A DNA stretch of 62,663 bases, filler included, from Rhabdomonas costata (taxonomy: Eukaryota), in the NCBI GenBank assembly GCA_019059605.1. It is 33 parts of 33 records of this genome, joined end to end, with 100 filler letters (N's around TTAATTAATTAA, not from the genome) between each part and the next. Parts side by side here need not be neighbours in the genome. Positions count along the whole stretch, not along the records: positions 36,144 to 37,945 come from JAHMHO010008833.1; positions 38,046 to 39,847 come from JAHMHO010008834.1; 31 more parts are not named here. The stretch is one strand, 5' to 3'. Every line of letters begins with the position of its first letter. Position 1 is the first letter of the stretch. A model generated the notes under the pieces. It made no database searches. It worked only from the letters and a program-made list of their open reading frames with translations, and was not told the origin of the DNA. A program made the translations under genes and the position numbers. Below, one piece after another: positions 3,391 to 60,763 of this stretch.

Positions 3391-4200
3391 GTGCATCGCG
3401 CTCTCCCGTTTAGCATATATGTCTGTGATTGTGCACTGGAAATAAAGAAGACCTTGCACCACCATCGCCCTGTGATATTTGACATAAAGGACACAAAGGA
3501 TTCAGAAACTTGGGAATTGGTGGTGACCTCGTGAGGGACACATTCTCATTGATGGAACTACCTTTTCCACTCGCAAAAGAAAAAGGTAAGCGAGCATTCT
3601 CCAACCTCACCATCTCTTTCATTCTGCCCGACCTATATTCCTGTTTTCTCAAATGCATTCACGCTCAGCACCAAAAACAACAACAACCCAAACACACCCC
3701 CACANNNNNNNNNNNNNNNNNNNNNNNNNNNNNNNNNNNNNNNNNNNNTTAATTAATTAANNNNNNNNNNNNNNNNNNNNNNNNNNNNNNNNNNNNNNNN
3801 NNNNTGTCGGGGGGGGGGGTGCTTTCAGCAGCAAGGGCCTCTTCGAGATGGACCAATCTGTTCAATCAAATTACTAGGACAGTAGGAGTAGGAAACAAAG
3901 CAAGCAACGAAGGAGAGGAGTGAAGAGTGGGAGCTGAACGGATGTGAATAAGTCGTCGTTCTAGCTATGCTCTGAACGTGTTCTATTCCTACAATGCTAA
4001 ACTGTCTCCGGAAAATAATTTTTCTTCCATTTTGAGCAGGCCTTCCACTTACCCAATGGAAATTGGGGGGGGGGGGGGTTTAACAAAAATCTGGCGTAAA
4101 ATTCATGCCAAAATAACTAAAAACGGTCACGTGAAACATGCCAGCACTCTCGATAGACTTTTTTGTGAGGGTGCCCCCTAGAAGATTGTTTTTGCTTAAT

Positions 4201-5697: not shown

Positions 5698-5714
5698 GTG
5701 GTGGGTGTGTTTGG
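5698..5714 (+). other. Whole-genome-amplification primer remnant
   Basis: GTGGTGGGTGTGTTTGG at a contig start. Its exact reverse complement ends another contig (34125-34141), with near copies at 3688-3704 and 18901-18917. Confidence 0.8.
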
Positions 5715-5733
5715 TTGGGGGGGGGGCAAGTAC

Positions 5734-14800: not shown

Positions 14801-15522
14801 TCAGGCGAAAGGTGCGTAATTTTTGGCACTGCATATGGCAATAATAAGCTTAACTTTACATTTTGTCATCCTGCGTGTCGCCGAAAATGCTCCTGTCACC
14901 AAAGTTCAAGTTACCGCTGCTTTTTGGCCAGAAGCAGTACGCGAGCTAGCCGGTTCTTTAATACTTATATCCCTGGTGCACTGGTGTGATGACCAGGGAG
15001 GTTAAGTTAATCGTATCCACCTCCCTCCCTGCCTCTCCGGCATTGCGTAGGATGCAGATGCAGCCGACTCAGCTGGAGGGGGTTGTCGCCGTGCCCCCGG
15101 TACACACCCCACNNNNNNNNNNNNNNNNNNNNNNNNNNNNNNNNNNNNNNNNNNNNTTAATTAATTAANNNNNNNNNNNNNNNNNNNNNNNNNNNNNNNN
15201 NNNNNNNNNNNNCCCACCAAACAGAAGGTAAAAGGTCAATATCTGTTTATCCATATTACGATTATTCTTTTTTTTTTTTTTGCGTTTATAGCTCTCTGGC
15301 TTTTATTATTCTTTAAGGATCGTAAAAATGTCCCTGCACTTGCTGAGAAAAGGAGAAGCTGATCCGAGAAGCGGGGGCACTTGTTGCAAAAAGGGCAATC
15401 AATCCAACAAATATTTCCGCCCTCTTTGGTTAATTTGTTCCTCATGAAGTGGAATTGAACCTTTCCAGATGAATACAAATGAATACAAACAGTTTCCAGA
15501 AATCAAAGCAAAGAATCCATGC

Positions 15523-16346
15523 CTGCGAAATCACCAGTCCACTCGTGTCATTGCCAAGGTCTTGAGAAAGACTTCCAAGCCCATTCACCGAAATCACACC
15601 CACCACAAACCGAAGTGAAGCTTGCGGCCGCTGCCGCCGCCGAAGCTCCAACACTGCTGCAGAAAGCGAGGACGAGGAGGAAACAACAACACTGCCTGGG
15701 GCACCAATGGAGAGCTCGCCCCAAGAAGCGCTGACACACTCCCGGACATCGACCCACCCATCGCAACGGCAGCTCGAAGGGCAAGCCCGGTCTGAGCGCA
15801 GGCTGCGGAGATCGCGTCCAGCGTCGCCTGCTCCGTCACCGAGGGCTCGTACAACACAGAGATCAGCTCACGCGAGAGGCTGCGCCGAAGGTACTGAACC
15901 ATCGCAATGCTCTCATCAATCACTGAGGACCGAAGGTGAACCACGCTGACTGAGCTCCCAGCACTCCCACTGCGAAGGGCATGCGAGCCGTTCAAAGGGG
16001 CAATGCTGGGGACGCCAGCGGCAAGCGCTATCTCCACGCTGAGGTTGACGGACAGGCTACCTGTGGCCCCCACAAACCCCAGCACGCCTTGGCTGAGCAG
16101 GGCTTGTGCACGTTGCTGTGGGCTGGAGGAGGTGTCCTGGGCCAGGGCAAGGCTTCGACTGCAGGCAGCCAGCGAGGCGTTGGCCTCCTGGAAGGCCAGT
16201 TGGATGCCCCTCTGGACGTCTGCCGCCTCCGCAAGGCCGTCATCGCTCAGAAACCCAAAGACAAGCAACCCGTCCGCAGCGGCTGGGGAAATCTCCTTCA
16301 GTAAAATGAGAGCAAGGGGAAGAACGGTCGTTCTCGGCAATCCCAT
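15523..16346 (-). CDS. Signal peptide plus Venus-flytrap (branched-chain amino acid periplasmic-binding-type) domain, typical of receptor adenylate cyclase ectodomains; one frameshift near 15680
   Basis: MGLPRTTVLPLALILL.. then VQRGIQLAFQEANA..GVLGFVGATGS..AAGVPSIAPLNGSHALR..VVHLRSSVIDESIAMVQYL..ISVLYE..PQAVLL. The expected continuation (..LSQDLGNDTSGLVISQ) is in another frame and ends at CAG|GCATGG. Confidence 0.82.
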
Positions 16347-17113
16347 GGCAAACCGGGAGCCATTGAAAATCATGATAAGGCGCTGCTGCGGACTTGACGT
16401 CACGCGACACGGGAAAAAGCACAAGATAAATGATAAAAAAAGAAAAAGCAAGGCGTTTGTCTGGAACCGGCAGAGATCGCAGTGTGCGCAAAATTGAGTC
16501 GACTGTTCGACTGTTTCTCCTTCCATTACAGAACGAAAGGCACCCCGGAGCCCTGGAGGAGAGGAGGTAAAATTCCCCCACAGGAAAAGCCTACCGGTGG
16601 GAAAGTATGCAGCCAGCTGTGGAGCTTAGGGATCTGCTGTGCGCGGTGTAGTTTGAGAACCTCACTTCCAAGCTTCGGTGATGCATTGGGACCCACAACA
16701 TGTACCAAAACCTCTGCGATCATCTGCATCATATGAAAATGCTCTGCCCAACTAGTTCCCTTTTCGCATCTGCCGTCCACTTGCCTTCGACGCTATCCCT
16801 CGATGGGGGGTTGGAAAAAACTGTTAAAGCCGCCTGTGCCCCCCTCCCTCCGGCAAAAAGTGAATGTTGGGGTCACTTAACCTGCCCCTTTCAGCACCGA
16901 CATTGTATACCGGGGAATGGTGCGAGGCCATCCATTATTGCATCCGGGCCATAGACTTGATGGAAAAGACACCACTTGAGCAAAGGCAACCTAAAACGGC
17001 TATAAAAAAAACANNNNNNNNNNNNNNNNNNNNNNNNNNNNNNNNNNNNNNNNNNNNTTAATTAATTAANNNNNNNNNNNNNNNNNNNNNNNNNNNNNNN
17101 NNNNNNNNNNNNN

Positions 17114-36143: not shown

Positions 36144-37796
36144 GTGTTGGTTTAAATTTACATATGGCAACTGATATATGATTATATCAGTTGCCATATG
36201 TAAATTTAAACCAGAACCATAATGTAATGCGTTAAGCATGAGTACTTGAAGTTTATTTTTTGTAAATTTGTCGATGATGTTATTAACAGCAGTATTTGAA
36301 CCTTGAACTTTACTATAGGATATATGTTCTTGATCAAATCGTTTTAAAATATTATCAAATGTTGCATCATAATTACTAAATACTAAAAATCTACCTTCTT
36401 TCTTTTTTTTTATAATTGTTATTAATGCTTCAATTTTTGTTAATTGTTTAGTTTGATTATTTTTATCTGTTTTTATAATATGTATTTCTTTTATATTAAA
36501 TCTAGATCTACATAAGGGACACATGTTTTTAACTTTTATTAAGCATGAAAAACAGAATATTTGATTACAACATGGTAAAACACAAGGATTTACAAATTCT
36601 TCAAGACATATCGGACAATTTTCTGTATGAAATGATTTGATTCGTTTTTCAATTGATTTATATCTTGTCTCATATGTTTTTATTTTTTCTTCTAATTTAT
36701 TTAATGTTTCATCATGTAATTTTTTATTTGATGGTATTCTTTTTTGCGCATATTCTAATTCCATTTTTGCATTATGTATATCTACACGTAATTGATTTGT
36801 TACTACTTGTAATATATTATCATCAGTATCTGTATTATAATTTAATCTACTAATTGCTTCTTGTATATTACCTGCATTTAACATTTCTAAAATATCACCA
36901 CTTAAATAATCTCGTACAATATTAAATTCTCTTGGTGTGTAACAATTGATTAAATTTTGTCTTATCATTGGTACATTCATAGACTCGATAATATAACGAT
37001 CATCATTTCGAACTATAATATTTTCAATAACAAATTTTGCTGATGCATTTATTAAATCTTTAATATAATATCTTTTAATATGCATAATACCTGAAGGTGT
37101 AGCTGTAATAAACCAGAAAAAATTACATTTCCAATTTATAGTAGATGGTAATTTTATGGAAGTTATTTCATCTATTATGATTCGTGCCCATTTTATATCT
37201 GAAAAATTATAATGAAATATATCATACATTGTTGCTGATATTATAACTACATCATATTCTTCAATATTTACCAAAACCATTTTATCTATATCAATTCGTT
37301 TTGATACTACATATATATTTAAATTAGATTGATCAAATATTGTTTTCCATTGTGAAACTAATGCATGAGGTACTATAATTAAATTCGTTTGTATACATGG
37401 TTCATCATCTACTAATTTAATAGTACTATAGAGACCATTTGATAATATTTTATCTCTATTTGGTACTCGATTATGTAATATAAGACCCAACATTTCATAT
37501 GTTTTACCAGATCCAACCATATCAGCCAATATACCAAAATTTGTTTCAATTTTAAATGTATTTTCTTTACATTCGATAGTTAAACAATTTTCTACATAAA
37601 TTTTAAATCGATGTATAGTTGATTTTATTTTAATTGTTATATTTCCATCTTCTTCTAATTGATTCATGGCATAGATAGATGTTAATTGATGATCCTTGAA
37701 TTTAATATTTAAATTATTTTGATTTAATTCAAGTAGCTTAGGTGAATCACTATTTAAATTGTTAATACTCATTTTTTGTTTTGTTATACTATACAT
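36144..37796 (-). CDS. SNF2-family helicase with an inserted RING finger (Rad5/Rad16-like architecture), giant-virus-like, 3' truncated; start at 37796 or 37772
   Basis: Intronless AT-rich ORF of about 550 aa: DHQ, GILADMVGSGKT (I), LIIVPHALVSQW (Ia), WARIIIDEI (II), WFITATP (III), CPICLEEFVNPCVLPCCNQIFCFSCL..CPLCR (RING), RFLVFSNY (IV), LMLNALHYGSGLNL (V). Confidence 0.92.
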
Positions 37797-38390
37797 ATAT
37801 TGTTATATTTTAAATCATTTAATTTTTAAATTTATATAAATTTTTAAATTTATATAATTTTTATGAAATATAAATAATGAAATAAATTAATAATGTCCCA
37901 AATATAAATAATTTTACTTCATTATTAACATTTTGCCAAACCACANNNNNNNNNNNNNNNNNNNNNNNNNNNNNNNNNNNNNNNNNNNNTTAATTAATTA
38001 ANNNNNNNNNNNNNNNNNNNNNNNNNNNNNNNNNNNNNNNNNNNNTGTTGGGGTTGGTGGCAGCTTTGAACAAAGCCTTCTGTAAGCCTACTGAGGGGTG
38101 TTGCCATTGTTGCGATGGTGCTACCTCTTTAATGGTGTGTGCTGGGATGGACTTCTAATGGAATGGACTTTCGGTTTCTTTCCTCTTTGCTCAATGCAAC
38201 TGATTTTCTGAGGTGAGCGTCTTCGGGCCCCAGGACCCACAGTAAAAAATGTGTATGAGGCACGCACAATTTAATCTATAACCTGGAAGAGTAGTAACCA
38301 CAGTAAAGAGAACTTTATTAAAAGTATATTTACCGTTTTTAATGGGAAAAAGAGCTGAAAAGGAGCTATCTCTTTCCGCCGTGTACCTAC

Positions 38391-52100: not shown

Positions 52101-55100
52101 GGGCATGATCATGCTCGATTTCCCGGCGGGTCCACACACCCCAAAGGTGGGGATTCACAACGGAACGAAAAGGAGATCCAAAGCTGGTTTTCCCGACACC
52201 CTCTCACCCTCGCAGCATTTGTGCATACCCATTGCCCCAAACCAGCAGGTGCCACCGGAGCAAATGTGCAAAGCAAGGCGCAAATGACGGGAAGAGGGCA
52301 ACATCAACAGGAAAAAGGGAAGTGGTGACAGACAATCGCGTGGGCACACATAAAATGCACACCTGAATTCTTGTTTGACGTGAGACATTTTTGTTTGTTC
52401 GCGTCGGTCTCGCAAGCTCCCCGCACATCCTTTTTGAGCACAACGAGGACCCCTCTCGGCCGTGTACGTGAAGCACTGACGCACGCAGACACGGTGACTT
52501 TTGGGGTGGCATACGAAAATGTGGTGAACCAATCATTGCATTCATCCCAATAGCATTCAAAAAGTATACCCCGAGATATTCAGTTACCATATCTTGGGGC
52601 AGCAAGAAAAGCAAGACACGCACTTTTTTGGTCTGCGTGGGGGTTGTATAACTCCATGTGAGAAAAGTATGGTGAAGAAAAGAACTTGCTGTGGGGGGGA
52701 GGCTGTGCTGCTCTACTTTCATTGGTCAAGAGAATTGCGCCAACACGAAAGCAGTCGCACGTCACAAGCAACTGCGCATGGGAAACGAGCTGGAAAGCCA
52801 AAAAGCAATCCGCCCATAAACCATGCTTTTGGGCGTGCCGCTCTGTGTGGGGAGCAGAACGACGTATATATATGCCTGCTTGTCCCTACTGTTTCCACGA
52901 AAGGTAAGGTAAACACGCAAGGGAGGCCACCCAACCAGACAACGCGCACTCCACGACACAGGAATAAAATAAGACCGGCTATTACTTAATTTTGCCGATC
53001 CGGCGTTGAGTGGTCGCTCTCGAACCGAATGCATTTTAAATTGGAGCCGCGTGCGCCTCCTCGATGGAGCTGCCCACGCTCTGCACTTCTGCATCCGACT
53101 TGAACTGCTCCAGGACAGAGCTCATCCCGCACACGCCGTGATCTGCTTCCCCACACACNNNNNNNNNNNNNNNNNNNNNNNNNNNNNNNNNNNNNNNNNN
53201 NNTTAATTAATTAANNNNNNNNNNNNNNNNNNNNNNNNNNNNNNNNNNNNNNNNNNNNGGTTGTGTGGCCATCCGATAATCAAATTGTAGATATGGCCAC
53301 ACAGCAAATAGAACAACCGAGTGGACAGGAAATCTTCGAACAGTGGGACCGGATAAACTGAATTTTGAAGTGAAAAATTGAACCTTTCTGTGTTTTTGGT
53401 TTCATTCTAACGCTTTTGTTTTAAGATTGGAATGGAAAGTAATTTTCAACTAAATAAACCGAAATCAATAAAAAATGAAGGGTTAAACACGACAGTCTAC
53501 TTTGGAACACGCACCAAGTAAGAAAAAGAAATACATTGGACAAGCCGAAATGTGTCAGGCGCAGGAGTGCAAAAACAGAAAAAGTGAAGAATATGCTGAA
53601 GGAAACGGTGGATAATAACGCAAGTACCAGTAGTTGTTGCTATCCATCATCTGCGAGGAAGATGGATGTATCGAACATGTGTGTCCGCTTATTGTGCAAT
53701 TTGCGAATTTTTGGGTGCTTTTTATACAATGGTTTCTTTTATAATTGCAGAATATGCCGAGCGGTGGCGGGCGTGTGACGGAAAAACCTGCCGGCCGGCA
53801 GGGTGAAATGGTGAAAGCGGCATGTGTGGTTGGATGATGGTGTGTTGTGGACGCTTAGAACACAGAACTCAGTCTCAAGCACTGTTAAGTCTGCATCTCA
53901 TATATAAATGATGCCTCAGTCCTTTGTGCATTCCCATGAAGCATCCTTCTTACCCATTGGCTTCTGCTCACACAAAAACCCCTTTTGGATCAGATCGTGC
54001 CTTCCACCAGTTCCTCCAGAAATTCTATCGATTTCGCTTGCATCTTTCCCATTTACCCCTTTTCCCCACAAAATCCTCTTTCCTGTTGTGCCACATGACA
54101 AGTCCCATTCTCCTCCACTCCCGTCGAATTTTATGGCCGATTCTCCCGCTCATTCTTCCCTCATCCATCTTGTGGGACAAATCATTGGCTTGACAACCCA
54201 CTACCTTTGGCACAACACATTTCTTTTGACAGGCTGTTTCTTTTCCTCACACTCGTGCTGAGCAGTGACCTCAACCCGCACATTGGTTCGAGTCCACTTG
54301 CGTTGCATTGCAATTTGTTATCGCCTCATCCCATGGTAGCCCCTGTTTTGTACTGTATTGCGTGTTTTCCCCTGACTGGTTTTTGGTTTATTTAAAATGT
54401 AAGTCTACCGCCGAAATTTGTCGGAAATTTTCTACCATGTTTTCCAAATTAATCATCAGGCTCTGGAATCAGTCTCCATCAAATATTTTACGTTTCTTAG
54501 AGTTTTACAATGCTTTACTGGTAAATTCTCTGTTGGCTTTATTTTACTTCCAAATCCCAACCGCCAACCGACGTCTCGGAATCATGCGGCATGCTTTTCT
54601 TTTCTTATTAGTCCTTTATCCTTCTTTCTATCTTCCTAAGTTAAACTTACCGTGTGAAATGTGATTCCCTACCTGTGAAAGCTTCCACCGATGATTCTTC
54701 ACTTCAGTGGAATGGAGAAATGAAACTGGGATCATACCCAGAAGAAGTTCTCGACGTGGGTTTGTTTACTAAAAATCAAAATGGTAAAAACCCAGAGTAG
54801 ATCCGGGATACAGGACTCTAACACCTGGTAGCAGAGGTTTTGTTTCTACCTGCGCACCCCCACCAAGGAACACCACTCACTGAAGTTTTCGCAAGAAACA
54901 CCAATCTATCCACCGCCCTATTTTGCGCTATTTTTACAGGGGAAAACTTCGGAAACGTACCGCTAAAATCCAAAAAAGAGAACCTCACAGCAAACCATGT
55001 TGTCGGGAATAGAAACAAACAAAAATGAGCGGTAAACAACCTGAAGGAGGAACACCCAACNNNNNNNNNNNNNNNNNNNNNNNNNNNNNNNNNNNNNNNN

Positions 55101-55429
55101 NNNNTTAATTAATTAANNNNNNNNNNNNNNNNNNNNNNNNNNNNNNNNNNNNNNNNNNNNGACCATGGACGCTGGAAGAGGTGGAAAACTTCACGGCGTT
55201 TAATTACGTTGGGGTTGGCTCAGTAGCTGGGATTGCAGTCATTAGAGTTGTTGGTTTCACTGATGTGAACGTGCACTAAAGGGTGGCTGCGAGTAAACTG
55301 ACACACGTAAGTGACTCTGTAGTCTGGTCTTATATCCATGAAAATTTACCATCCAATCGCTTAAGCGCCTTCAATTGTGACGGCTCTTCTTGGCAAGGTT
55401 GTGAACAATCAGTAACTCCATGCCTTTCA

Positions 55430-55800
55430 TGAAATCAAAAATAAAGTTGTTTGTACGCAGGCGTATGTTTTGAACTTAGCAGTATACGCAGGGTAATCTC
55501 CGTTGTTTTTCTTAATATTATGCGTTGACTCAAAAATGAGTTGGTAATAGTAGTTCTTCGTTAGGTACTGCGCCTTTAGCATGTCTGTGAACTGGTCACA
55601 TGAGGTGAAGGTTGTCCATTAGCGAAGATGCCTCGTCCGGCGTCTACAAAGGCCATTTGGGATTAGCGGATGGAAATTGGTCTGGTAATTCTCGCTGGCA
55701 TTTTTTCGTTCACTCTAACCAGAAAGTCCATGAAGTGTTCTAGGTTGCCGTCAAACGTTTCGAACTCGGGATATTTTTCCAGTAGTTTTGTATTTCCTGC
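55430..55800 (-). mobile_element. Retrotransposon gag pseudogene with frameshifts and a stop; absent from the ORF track
   Basis: Hand translation: LLEKYPEFETFDGNLEHFMDFLVRVNEK/KCQRELPDQ/ISIR*SQMAFVDAGRGIFANG/FTSCDQFTDMLKAQYLTKNYYYQLIFESTHNIKKNNGDYPAYTAKFK. This fits the Retrotrans_gag pattern and aligns to 25941-26310. Confidence 0.7.
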
Positions 55801-58004
55801 GGCTTCAGATTAACTTGAGCCTAGAATGTTTTGAAAGAGACACCTGTAGCTTGTACAAAGTTTTGCATCACTTCCATTAGATGGGTTTGCTTGAGTAGGA
55901 GTTTTGGTACAGCAAAATCGGGTTAGATTACTTTAGTTTTGTCTAATGCGGTAGCAAATTTTAAAACAAGACTGTTGTGTCAAATGAACAAAAAGTCCGC
56001 GGGTGAAAAGCGGCACCAAAGGAAAGCAAAAGCATGAAGAAAAGCACTAAATTACAGTGGGTGTTGTGAAGTACAAATACAGTAGCAACGGTCAAGTTGA
56101 ATTGCCAGAAGATCATTTGGCCAAAGGAACGTTTTTTAGGATGTGACGGATTAGGATTTGGAATGTGAACGGCACATTGCCTCAGAGAATTTGGGGGAGT
56201 GGTGATCCAGAAGAAAGATTAAGAATCAAAAAATATAATTTGGTTTCATGAAGAAATCAACTCTTACGCACCTATTTAGAAAACACAAAAGTAAAATAAT
56301 AAGACACAATTTTCTTGGGCTTTGCCACGTGTTTCCACTTCTCTCTAGCTCATTTGGTTCTGGATGGGCCTTTGAAAAGACGAAGTCAAAGGCTACAAAA
56401 TCTGGTTACCACCAAACGTTTGAACAGCATACTACAAAGCACGAAGGCAATAAACAGCAAGGATCCAAAATGACCAGGTCCCACCATATCCCGGTGGGCC
56501 GTAATACTTTGCCCCAAGACACTCAATACCTGGGGCACATTTTGCACCACTGGTTGGTTGCTGTCCTTTTTTCTGCTTGAATTTTTCTGTGTGTCTTCCG
56601 CAGAAAATAAAGAGCATCTTCATCTCATTGGAAAAACTGCGTGGAATTAACCATTTTCATTCCCAAGGATGGTTCGAATAGCGGTCCAAACATCTCGGTC
56701 TTAAATTCAGGATTCCTGGCGGAGCAGACATTCCGGTAACCGGTTACCAAGCCGGTTTGTGACACTCTCTCACACTTGCAGTTTACTTCTGAAAGCCGAA
56801 CCGGATTGGCAAGGAGTGTTTTTCAAACTCTGAACTGTTAGACAAACTCCTTTAACAGTTTAAATTTGCTGCTTGGGGGTGTTTGATGAACTTCTGGTGG
56901 ATGGGTGCCTCAACCAAAGCACAAACGAATGCAAGAAAAAGAGTTTAAACACACCACACTTNNNNNNNNNNNNNNNNNNNNNNNNNNNNNNNNNNNNNNN
57001 NNNNNTTAATTAATTAANNNNNNNNNNNNNNNNNNNNNNNNNNNNNNNNNNNNNNNNNNNNGTGGGTTGTTGCGTGTATCTGATCACCGTATCTGATATC
57101 TGCGGCAGAGCGTACATTTGCGCCCGTGAAGTCCTCCCGGCTACTTGCAAAGAAGTTATCATAACTGACCTGAGGGGCATTGCGGTATCCCGTTCCCAGC
57201 CCGCAACAGCTGTGAATGAAGCTGGGGAGCTGGGGAGGGACCCCGAGTTTGACGCTTGAATGTCTGCTTTCCGCCCCGCTGTATGTGAGATGCGTTGCAC
57301 GATCCTGTCATCAACCTGCGACACGAGGCACACACACATCATGCAAGTAGGACAAGGGTATTTTTTTGTTCGTTTCTTCGTTCGGTCTATATCTTAAAGA
57401 TAAATGACCTTCCTTCCCAGTACTAGCGTGGAATCTGTTGTTTGTGCTTCTTGGTGGTCCCGCTGAATTTTTGCTCCAAACTCTTCTGCTGGTTGGAAGG
57501 AGCTCATCACTGCAGACAGGGGTGAATGCTGACGACACTTATTTTTTCACGTCACCTTGCAGTTCGCTTGAATCTGTGTGAATCGTGTAGATTTGGGTAC
57601 TACGAACCATGCAAGTCTCCAGGCATGCCCAAGCAGATCGGGTGCCAGTGTTAACGGGGATTTGGGTACTTACCACGTGCTTTAGGTGCAATATTTTCCC
57701 TGCTCTATTTTTGTGTATTTCGTCTGCTTAACGTATCATCAATACGCCGTCAACCACCGACGCGTACATAATCTTCTGTCAGGCGCAATGAAGGGCGAAG
57801 GTCAAAGTGGTGCGTAGTGAGTTTGGGTGGAAGGAGATATAGATTTTCTTTTGCCGTCTTTTATATTGCCGGTGGTGGTGGTGCAGTGTGCCGTATTTGA
57901 ATGATTTTGGTGGGCTGTGTTCCCGAGCTTTGGTAAGTTTTCGTTTGTGTGCTGTAGTGTGCTGCGGTGTGCTGCGGTGGGAATCCAAGTGAGGGGAGAG
58001 AAAA

Positions 58005-58962: not shown

Positions 58963-59853
58963 GACAGCCCCTTGGCCAACCCATCGGTAGTGGTCTCTGC
59001 AAGCAGCAGTGCGGAAGCTGTGCTGATCAGCGGTGGAAGCTCCGGAGACATTGCTGGGATTATCACTGCAGTGAAGGCCTCTCGTCCGGCACAGCCCATC
59101 TTTGTGTTCTTTTCCAGCATAGAGCCGATGCACGTGGTTGCAGGGTTGCCCGCTGGCCTTGAAGGAGTGTACTTCACATCGTTTGTGCCCTCCCCCAGCT
59201 CAGATGCCGACCTGATTAGCGTGTACAGCCGAGCCGCTGTGCAGCAGCAGAATGCTTCTTTGGGCGTGAGCTTTTCTGCGCTGGAGGGGTTTCTGGCTGC
59301 GAAGCTGGTGGCCCAGTTGGTGAGCAGTGTTCAAGGCTCGGTCAGCTCATCGGGGCTGAAGCAAGCGCTGTACAGCTCCTCGGTGTTTAGCGTTGATGGC
59401 GTGCGGCTTGGCCCATTTGTAGGCTCGTCGTGCCTTTCTTATAGCAAAGATTCGAGCTGCCAATGCGACCTGGGTGCCAGCAGCGTTGCCGTTCTTGAAC
59501 TGAGCACATCAAGGAAGGTTGAGCAAGCCCCAAATGGAGTGCTCAACTTTGCCACCTGCGAAGTCCAGCTGGTGCTTGGTTCGGATGGGAGCTCTTCGTC
59601 CGTGGGATTTCTGGTGGGGATCATTGTTGCTGCTCTGGTGTTGTTCGGCCTTATCGTTGGCGTATTCCTCCATCTACTGTTGGCGAAAAAGCGAGCGCGG
59701 GATGCCGCCATTAAGGCCGCTCCGAAAGGGGAGGTGACAATTGCCTTCACCGACGTGCAGGACAGCACTCGGCTTTGGGACGTGTGCCCCGGGATGCGCG
59801 ACGCGCTGGACACCCACAACGATGTAATGAGAGTTCTTATCCAGCGCTATCAG
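58963..59853 (+). CDS. Receptor-type adenylate cyclase (Venus-flytrap C-lobe, TM helix, start of catalytic domain), partial
   Basis: GVYFTSFVPSP..SALEGFLAAKLV..ALY..VDGVRLGPF..CQCDLG ectodomain, TM GFLVGIIVAALVLFGLIVGVFL, then APKGEVTIAFTDVQDSTRLW..MRDALDTHNDVMRVLI as in trypanosomatid ESAG4/GRESAG4-type cyclases. Donor CAG|GTAGTT. Confidence 0.92.
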
Positions 59854-60659
59854 GTAGTTTTTAGCATAAACCCAGTGGAAGACATGGGGTCACATAACCT
59901 CGGTCCCATAGACAATTTACAGGTGTCCACGAGAATAGCTCTGTGTAAAGGGCACAGGCCGAAGTGAATCGGGTCTTTTGAATGTATAATCGGAGCAAAA
60001 GGCGGGTAAGAAGCGGGATAAGAGGGCAGCACCAGAGAACAGAGAATAAAAGAGCCACCAAAGGCCCATGACCTGACGGCCTACCCAAAAAAGCAAAAGA
60101 ATCCCGCTCTGACGTTCCCGCGCCCACTCGAGTTGACAAATGCGAATAAAAGCTAGAGCAACACACAGCAGCTGCCCTGTTCGCGGGCAATGTGTTTGAC
60201 GTGCCACTGTTTATGCCCCTTATCGTGGGCAGTCGATTCGTCAAATTGCCCCTTATTCTTATTTAAAAAATACACTGGGGGGGGGGGAACGCCAGGCAAC
60301 TGCACGGTTTAGGGTTGCAGCAAAGGCAAGACGATTCAAAAAGGAGAAAAGGACACAACCTTCGCAGCTCGACACCTCGCAGTGCGCAAATGCGGTTCCA
60401 TTTCTGTTGTGCAAGCAACCGTAAGCAGAATTGTCAGCAGTTTTGGTTCCCTCATTCATAAAGATACAGAAAGACAAGGTAGGTCAACAGTGCGCCCAAA
60501 AACTCTCTCAACGCATACATGACACAAAGAAACAAAAGAAGCACTTCAAGTTTAATCGGCAGAGGGAGGGGGGCGACAAACAACAGTGATTGTGTCGATT
60601 GAATTTCAGCCCCCCCCCCCCCAAGAAAATACGCCTCAACACCACCACGGGAAAAAAAC

Positions 60660-60763
60660 CTCGGTCCAGGACGACCGTCCTGAGGTTCGCCGTCAGCTGC
60701 CCCTGTTGCAGCGCGCAGGCCAGGGCGCAGCCGTTGCTGCCCCCGCCCACAATCACCACACAA
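60660..60763 (-). CDS. FAD-dependent monooxygenase N-terminal exon, COQ6/UbiH-like
   Basis: VVIVGGGSNGCALACALQQGQLTANLRTVVLDR is a GxGxxG Rossmann beta-alpha-beta unit with a COQ6-like loop. GT donor at 60659. Confidence 0.65.

Follow-up and report, generated by a model that had tools for sequence, protein, structure and literature searches.

The stretch of DNA analysed here, referred to as the window, comprises 62,663 bases of the Rhabdomonas costata assembly GCA_019059605.1 and is made up of 33 contigs, each of 1793-1805 nucleotides (nt), joined by 32 spacers (runs of N around TTAATTAATTAA). The contig at positions 36144-37945 is occupied almost entirely by a single open reading frame (ORF), coding for a compact protein that combines an SNF2 helicase with a RING finger. 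The G+C content (GC) of this contig is 22.5%, as compared with 42.2-58.0% across the other 32 (contig table and 1-kb profile), which agrees with the initial annotation of this DNA, where roughly 20-25% against about 50% had been estimated by eye. The gene, the protein family to which it belongs and the way in which such DNA may have come to lie among the sequences of a protist are considered below.

The ORF lies on the minus strand, where 551 codons free of stops extend from an ATG at 37796 as far as the left contig end; it covers 92% of the contig. This first in-frame ATG is placed 8 codons upstream of a second one (37772), which is the more likely start, since the N-termini of the homologues align there. 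The reading frame is uninterrupted and colinear with the homologues, so that no intron is present, as had been stated initially. Moreover, over 142 nt ahead of the first ATG the GC is only 10%, in accordance with the nearly pure A/T upstream region previously described. Low GC together with dense, intronless coding is the pattern of Nucleocytoviricota/Imitervirales genomes, and the contig, with its single ORF, follows it.

Two features of the left end of the contig had been overlooked. The first is that the gene is open at its 3' end: when compared with the homologues, mostly 600-720 amino acids (aa) long, some 100-170 residues are absent, including helicase motif VI. The second is a perfect inverted repeat, of which the gene continues through the right arm only. 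The protein departs from the family consensus (…GSGLNLxMATDIIIY), at about residue 540, exactly where the repeat turns back. From this it can be concluded that amplification produced a chimera at the left contig end, by snap-back or template switching, which is a known artefact of strand-displacing reactions. It follows that the final 10 or so residues of the ORF are not real and that the gene is truncated; the homologues extend further, through motif VI (QVIGRAQRxGR) into a conserved tail. The remaining part of the gene is well preserved: among the 79 columns showing no variation across 31 relatives, the query agrees in 75, the changes being N145A, K263R, C320Y and Q533H, and, as read from the sequence, the gene is not eroded, with neither stop nor frameshift. 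The features of the contig are collected in Table 1.

Table 1. Positions of the features of the AT-rich contig, counted along the window (residues are those of the encoded protein).
Feature	Position	Strand	Remarks
Whole AT-rich contig	36144..37945	.	1802 nt, 22.5% GC; primer-type sequence on both sides
G/T-only 10-nt run, amplification-primer-type end	36144..36153	+	5' end of the contig
Perfect inverted repeat	36148..36213	.	Arms of 31 nt (36148-36178 and 36183-36213), 4-nt loop
Genuine part of the SNF2-RING ORF	36183..37772	-	Counted from the second ATG (37772); 3' truncated
Helicase_C, first part, motifs IV-V	36183..36437	-	...GSGLNLHMATD...; motif VI missing
RING finger between the helicase lobes	36501..36623	-	Residues 392-432; family pattern CPIC...PCCN(Q/N)..C..C...CP.C
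SNF2 N-terminal ATPase lobe	37149..37562	-	Residues 79-216; motif I GSGKT, motif II DEIT, then motif III TATPS
Upstream region	37773..37935	-	About 10% GC; carries AAAATTAA and ATGATTTAA
A/C-only 10-nt run, complement of the primer type	37936..37945	+	3' end of the contig

The domain content of the protein confirms the compact SNF2 and RING architecture that had been proposed. Two Pfam families are matched above their cut-offs, namely SNF2-rel_dom (8.9e-10) and Helicase_C (residues 454-545, 6.4e-9), with the RING finger placed between the two lobes; the Pfam models for the latter remain slightly under their cut-offs (zf-C3HC4_3, 25.2 bits against 27), and a search of the PDB with the single sequence matched the RING domains of TRIM21 and RNF4 (1.6e-7 to 1e-6). 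In the N-terminal lobe the Q motif, motif I (GxGKT), motif II (DExx) and motif III (TATPS) are all present, and the invariant family columns H36, Q37, G95, G97, K98, T99, D209, E210 and A232-S235 are kept. In the C-terminal lobe motif V is present and the chimera at about residue 540 precedes motif VI (QxxGRxxRxGR). In the RING finger, C394, C397, C410, C415, C418, C426 and C429 show no variation within the family, and C409 hardly any. The position of the histidine ligand is taken by Q or N in most members, and an extra cysteine precedes the third ligand (PCCN(Q/N)..C..C; residues 409-412), so that zinc coordination in this family may differ from that of a standard C3HC4 finger. The classical C-x-H arrangement is retained by one member (P0120).

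Structural comparisons relate the protein to Rad5. Using a family alignment of 32 sequences (A1) as a profile, the best match in the PDB was Rad5 (6l8n, 7.8e-21), followed by Rad8/DNMT5 and then by other SNF2 remodellers. In the AlphaFold model built on the same alignment (mean predicted local distance difference test, pLDDT, 74.5; predicted template modelling score, pTM, 0.52), the RING sits between two RecA-like lobes and is preceded by a long helical hairpin (residues 328-389) that runs into it. With this model, Foldseek returned Rad5 of K. lactis as the top match (2.1e-16) and DNMT5 after it. The HIRAN domain was not among the 11 Pfam families listed at E<=0.1, and only about 94 residues precede motif I. 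By its architecture the protein is thus a minimal Rad5/Rad16-type enzyme, in which one defining feature of Rad5 and HLTF is missing.

As regards its relatives, a search of a set of 5.8 billion clusters, in which 7998 candidates were scored, gave 283 homologues at E<=0.001, the best of them at 8.7e-173 with 50% identity (BLASTP), or 54% over aligned columns. These homologues are labelled as nothing more precise than "hypothetical protein" or "helicase"; the contigs that carry them measure 30-415 kb in many cases. A scan of IMG/VR with the single protein gave no match; with the A1 alignment, 32 loci were recovered, of which 30 show 33-47% identity and the other two are distant, nearly all on contigs of giant virus metagenome-assembled genomes (GVMAGs). 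The GC of the related viral loci is mostly 18-29%. Three records of related giant-virus bins were examined, two of them near-complete (692 kb and 624 kb) and the third a fragment only 7% complete. The two near-complete bins contain 4 and 5 matches to the capsid protein of nucleocytoplasmic large DNA viruses (NCLDVs), as well as A32, VLTF3, PolB and PCNA; none of these five was found in the 7%-complete fragment. The SNF2-RING gene is single-copy in each of the three. That compact Rad5-like genes of this kind occur in AT-rich, mimivirus-like viruses, as had been suggested from general knowledge, is thus supported both by the profile and fold matches to Rad5 and by the AT-rich GVMAG loci. SNF2-type helicases have been counted among the broadly distributed giant virus orthologous groups (GVOGs), two families being named in the corresponding part of that work, SFII (GVOGm0013) and DEAD-SNF2-like helicase (GVOGm0020) (PMC8575486); no paper on the giant-virus SNF2-RING family was apparent in the literature searched, as far as titles and partial texts go.

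The genomic setting of the family is informative as well. A large ORF found upstream of the SNF2-RING gene combines PriCT_2 and Herpes_ori_bp, which corresponds to a D5-type primase-helicase, an NCLDV core gene. A relative of this D5-type gene lies upstream, on the same contig and strand, in 15 of the 31 loci, and several of the other 16 have less than 6 kb of upstream DNA. Genes for E2 ubiquitin-conjugating enzymes occur in all three bin records, some of them on the SNF2-RING contig itself. In three of the 31 loci, a large protein (about 770 aa) that ends in an E2 domain (UQ_con) is encoded a few kb upstream of the D5/SNF2-RING pair (L021 364-2685, L007 173-1585 and L026 3-1271); this large protein is a possible E2 partner for the RING finger. 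In a further locus (L023 5667-7532), on a viral contig of 183 kb, a gene for a GTPase resembling translation initiation factor 2/eIF5B adjoins the SNF2-RING gene. Large genomes of mimivirus-like type typically include such translation genes.

The upstream regions of the family carry a recurrent promoter-like signal. The octamer AAAATTGA was found within 150 nt upstream in 12 of the 31 loci, mostly at -51 to -70, as against a mean of 1.0 and a maximum of 5 over 1000 shuffles, and in none of the 31 intervals taken inside genes. This octamer has been described as the early-gene promoter motif of mimivirus (PMC5294985). In the contig, AAAATTAA, one mismatch away from AAAATTGA, is placed at 37826-37819, 54 nt ahead of the second ATG. 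Moreover, ATGATTTAA in the same upstream region is common to the query and several of its relatives.

Phylogenetic analysis was performed with two data sets: a FastTree of 155 rows (query residues 1-540, 123 database proteins and 31 locus proteins) and a quick IQ-TREE of 46 rows (44 family members and two cellular-type outgroup sequences, i.e. one EukProt protein and one long SNF2-RING protein). The query falls inside the family in both. In the 46-row tree, a split with a Shimodaira-Hasegawa-like approximate likelihood ratio test (SH-aLRT) value of 99 separates the 44 family rows from the outgroup, which consists of just those two rows. The query has branch lengths of 0.44 and 0.66 and groups with P0103, P0114 and P0118 (support 99 and 98). 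It thus stands on its own branch, which means that the virus has not been closely sampled so far. The gene is a new, divergent member of a known giant-virus gene family, with nothing above 54% identity in about 15 billion catalogued proteins. In the protein atlas, which is used as a lead only, each of the 10 nearest cluster sets listed consists of viruses to 92-100%, most commonly Nucleocytoviricota.

A cellular origin was approached from two sides. No bacterial or archaeal relative was found in a set with one genome per species, covering 185,579 species, and an origin in either domain was accordingly rejected. Among longer proteins (966-2755 aa, the range expected of eukaryotic Rad5-type enzymes) there were three matches, with at most 41% identity over 9-65% of the query; the best of them reaches 26% identity across 65% of the query, and the sole EukProt match has 24% (E 1.9e-4). 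A close long eukaryotic homologue was therefore not found in this length range, the word-based search being one that may miss distant proteins, not close ones. Within the window, the other 32 contigs gave no match to 413 ORFs (>=100 aa) of the related viral loci, all 31 high-scoring segment pairs falling on the AT-rich contig.

Since the protein belongs to a family found on giant-virus bins, and neither a bacterial nor a close eukaryotic relative was found in the sets searched, a giant-virus origin of the contig is well supported. As judged from these comparisons, the contig very probably derives from a giant virus, which would probably be Imitervirales-like. The initial annotation had taken the contig to be giant-virus-like; this stands, as the protein nests within a family carried by giant-virus bins with hallmark genes. 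It does not nest among sequences of AT-rich eukaryotes or of bacteria, the outcome that had been named beforehand as speaking against a viral protein.

The ends of the contigs tell how the DNA was obtained. Runs of at least 6 nt made up only of G and T are found at the 5' end of 22 of the 33 contigs, and runs of at least 6 nt made up only of A and C at the 3' end of 22 of the 33; both occur together in 16, often with a length of 10-12 nt. We take G/T-only contig ends to be the residue typical of kits with degenerate G/T amplification primers, and the end runs are primer remnants left untrimmed ahead of assembly, so that the contigs are largely individual products of whole-genome amplification. 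In some contigs long G or C homopolymers stand beside the end runs (e.g. 3805-3830 and 5698-5727). The AT-rich contig bears ends of the same type, as had been pointed out initially: it opens with 10 nt consisting of G and T alone and closes with 10 nt of A and C alone. It therefore went through the same amplification chemistry as the others.

The other contigs resemble eukaryotic nuclear DNA of about 50% GC. Only two of the 10 long ORFs scanned have Pfam matches. The ORF at 58966-59964 (plus strand; contig 58963-60763) contains the periplasmic-binding-protein-like domain of receptor adenylate cyclases (PF25493, 9.4e-11) and the start of the cyclase catalytic domain. Its best match in the PDB is GRESAG 4.3 of Trypanosoma (1.1e-6), and its nearest atlas cluster, again a lead only, is eukaryotic, most commonly Euglenozoa (score 0.84). 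The ORF is thus that of a receptor adenylate cyclase of trypanosome type, which hints at a euglenozoan cell and is in keeping with the kind of host considered initially. A second ORF, at 15597-16625 (minus strand; contig 15213-17013), shows a weak match to Peripla_BP_6 (1.7e-5, below the cut-off) and might represent the extracellular portion of a further receptor-type cyclase. No RNA family was found by Rfam at the gathering threshold in the whole window, which thus gives no clue to the host from ribosomal or spliced-leader RNA. Two contigs (53259-55060 and 55161-56961) have a GC of 42-43%, as against 48-58% in the rest apart from the AT-rich contig; no convincing ORF of at least 90 aa was found in either.

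Taken together, the contig would be one amplification product from an unsampled AT-rich giant virus (Nucleocytoviricota, most likely mimivirus-like, Imitervirales), the DNA of which would have shared a whole-genome amplification reaction with a protist cell of about 50% GC, probably a euglenozoan. This whole reading, i.e. the unsampled virus as the source, its DNA in the same reaction as the cell and a compact Rad5-type gene on it, is held with high confidence.

The gene, intact as far as it goes, encodes a compact Rad5-type enzyme, made up of an SNF2 translocase acting on double-stranded DNA and a RING E3 finger inserted between the ATPase lobes, with no HIRAN domain. Such a protein would probably be expressed early and take part in replication or repair within the virus factory. 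The translocase would spend ATP on remodelling stalled forks, or on stripping or remodelling DNA-protein complexes, and the RING finger would recruit an E2, several of which are virus-encoded, so that a target linked to replication, plausibly the PCNA of the virus, is ubiquitinated. Both PCNA and E2 genes are present in the related virus bins, and the frequent position of the gene beside that of the D5 primase-helicase fits a role in replication. The lack of HIRAN implies that DNA ends would be recognized in a different manner from that of Rad5 or HLTF.

Several observations weigh against this interpretation or limit its reach. The closest relatives of the protein (P0002-P0006, P0103, P0114 and P0118) are unlabelled metagenome proteins, and the viral labels in the family rest on metagenome bins, not on isolates. 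In those bins capsid, PolB, A32 and VLTF3 genes lie on contigs other than that of the SNF2-RING gene, with which only the D5-type gene and E2 genes share a contig. The AT-rich contig itself has no hallmark gene, and one gene on 1.8 kb is insufficient for placement in the virus taxonomy. Furthermore, the sister grouping of the query was flagged in the FastTree as possible long-branch attraction, and the exact AAAATTGA is absent from the upstream region of the query, where only the one-mismatch variant occurs. Foldseek gave low TM-scores (near 0.30), the lobes being differently oriented, as is expected of a multi-lobe protein. The proposed function is read from domain architecture and neighbouring genes.

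Different routes by which the viral DNA may have reached the cell can be considered. Passive acquisition, in which a virus particle was eaten by, attached to or co-sorted with the protist cell, is on priors at least as likely as productive infection, and receives most of the weight that the other explanations leave. Phagotrophic protists do eat particles the size of giant viruses.

A productive or latent infection of the protist cell, by which the contig would mark a true virus-host pair, is possible but not likely. The primer-type ends place the viral DNA in the amplification reaction of the cell, the SNF2-RING gene is intact, and the receptor adenylate cyclase of trypanosome type on another contig is in keeping with a euglenozoan; moreover, there is a precedent in Bodo saltans virus (BsV), whose genome has 25.3% GC against about 50% for that of its kinetoplastid host. 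Against this, the feeding habit just mentioned would deliver such particles without infection, and the viral sequence visible amounts to a single contig of 1.8 kb. The proportion of one contig in 33 is silent on viral abundance, since the window was chosen for holding the AT-rich contig. The more specific proposal that a mimivirus-like virus was infecting an uncultured euglenozoan (a diplonemid, a euglenid or a free-living kinetoplastid) when the cell was picked is rather doubtful.

Carry-over between amplification reactions or sequencing libraries of the same chemistry is less likely still. Any reaction of the same kit would give like primer-type ends, and a single small contig is what such an event might leave; but no direct evidence speaks for it, and giant-virus DNA is not known as a contaminant of reagents.

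The presence of a giant endogenous viral element (GEVE) in a chromosome of the protist appears quite improbable. Eight GEVEs were reported in Euglena gracilis in 2025, and the table given there appears to list GC values near 25-33% (PMC12455990). Against this, the contig is AT-rich over its whole length between the primers and lacks any flank resembling host DNA, and its ORF shows none of the erosion seen in the Euglena elements, having no stops and most of the invariant columns. The missing junction with host DNA is weak evidence either way, because an amplicon running from primer to primer is too short to show one. Finally, a non-viral origin, from an AT-rich eukaryote (ciliate or amoeba prey) or a bacterium, is hardly credible: AT-rich eukaryotes with SNF2-RING proteins of Rad5/Rad16 type do exist and the nearest database proteins are unlabelled, but the searches of prokaryotic genomes and of long proteins yielded nothing at all and only three partial matches, respectively, the gene is compact and intronless, and the labelled relatives are all on giant-virus bins, adjoining a D5-type primase-helicase in 15 of 31 loci.

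With an unsampled giant virus as the preferred source, intact giant-virus DNA in a single-cell genome offers a useful lead in the search for a new pair of virus and host in abundant and poorly known protists. The value of the lead comes from the scarcity of comparable cases, since BsV is the only isolated giant virus of Discoba and the sole other trace found is that of the eroded insertions of Euglena gracilis. Infection, if true, would provide a second host link for giant viruses in Discoba, as well as a handle on the virus genome through the rest of the assembly. Taken alone, a truncated gene on a 1.8-kb amplicon is ordinary, the family being common in giant-virus metagenome bins, and the contig is of value mainly as a prompt to search the full assembly and sister cells. 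The SNF2-RING family is of interest in its own right, as a minimal Rad5 type without HIRAN, with altered RING ligands and often encoded beside the D5 primase-helicase. Since the gene often adjoins that of D5 in viruses which also encode PCNA and E2 enzymes, the combination suggests a virus-encoded and unstudied pathway of ubiquitin-dependent response to replication stress.

As regards known systems, BsV offers a parallel in its biological setting. Its AT-rich genome contrasts with the roughly 50% GC of its Bodo host, and several E2 enzymes are encoded in it (PMC5871332); this contrast between virus and host matches the one seen in the window, the likeness being one of composition. The terms SNF2 and RING have no occurrences each in the main text of that paper. 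According to PMC8061765, no DNA virus apart from BsV is documented in Euglenozoa, and the infection of diplonemids or of euglenids "has not been verified experimentally". In the 2025 work, BsV is still the single giant virus infecting Discoba, and the eroded GEVEs of Euglena gracilis include SFII (DEAD/SNF2-like) helicase markers (PMC12455990). These elements are likewise giant-virus DNA linked to a euglenozoan, but integrated and eroded, whereas the contig described here has neither junction nor erosion.

At the level of the protein, yeast Rad5 (6l8n/6l8o), together with the Rad5/Rad16/HLTF group, is the best solved match by both profile and fold, and shares with the query the RING finger between the SNF2 lobes. 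The identity in structural alignment is about 16-17%, and the query family differs in the lack of HIRAN, in the replaced histidine ligand of the RING and in its size, about 650-700 aa when complete against the 952-residue Rad5 chain. The GVMAG SNF2-RING helicases (e.g. L001-L030) are nearer. The query differs from them in being at most 54% identical and on a branch of its own, with three unlabelled metagenome proteins as possible sisters, in its truncation by about 100-170 C-terminal residues and in having no exact AAAATTGA upstream; nevertheless, the domain order is the same, the proteins are near-colinear at 33-54% identity, and they share with the query the unusual RING pattern PCCN(Q/N)..C..C as well as the AT-rich context and upstream region.

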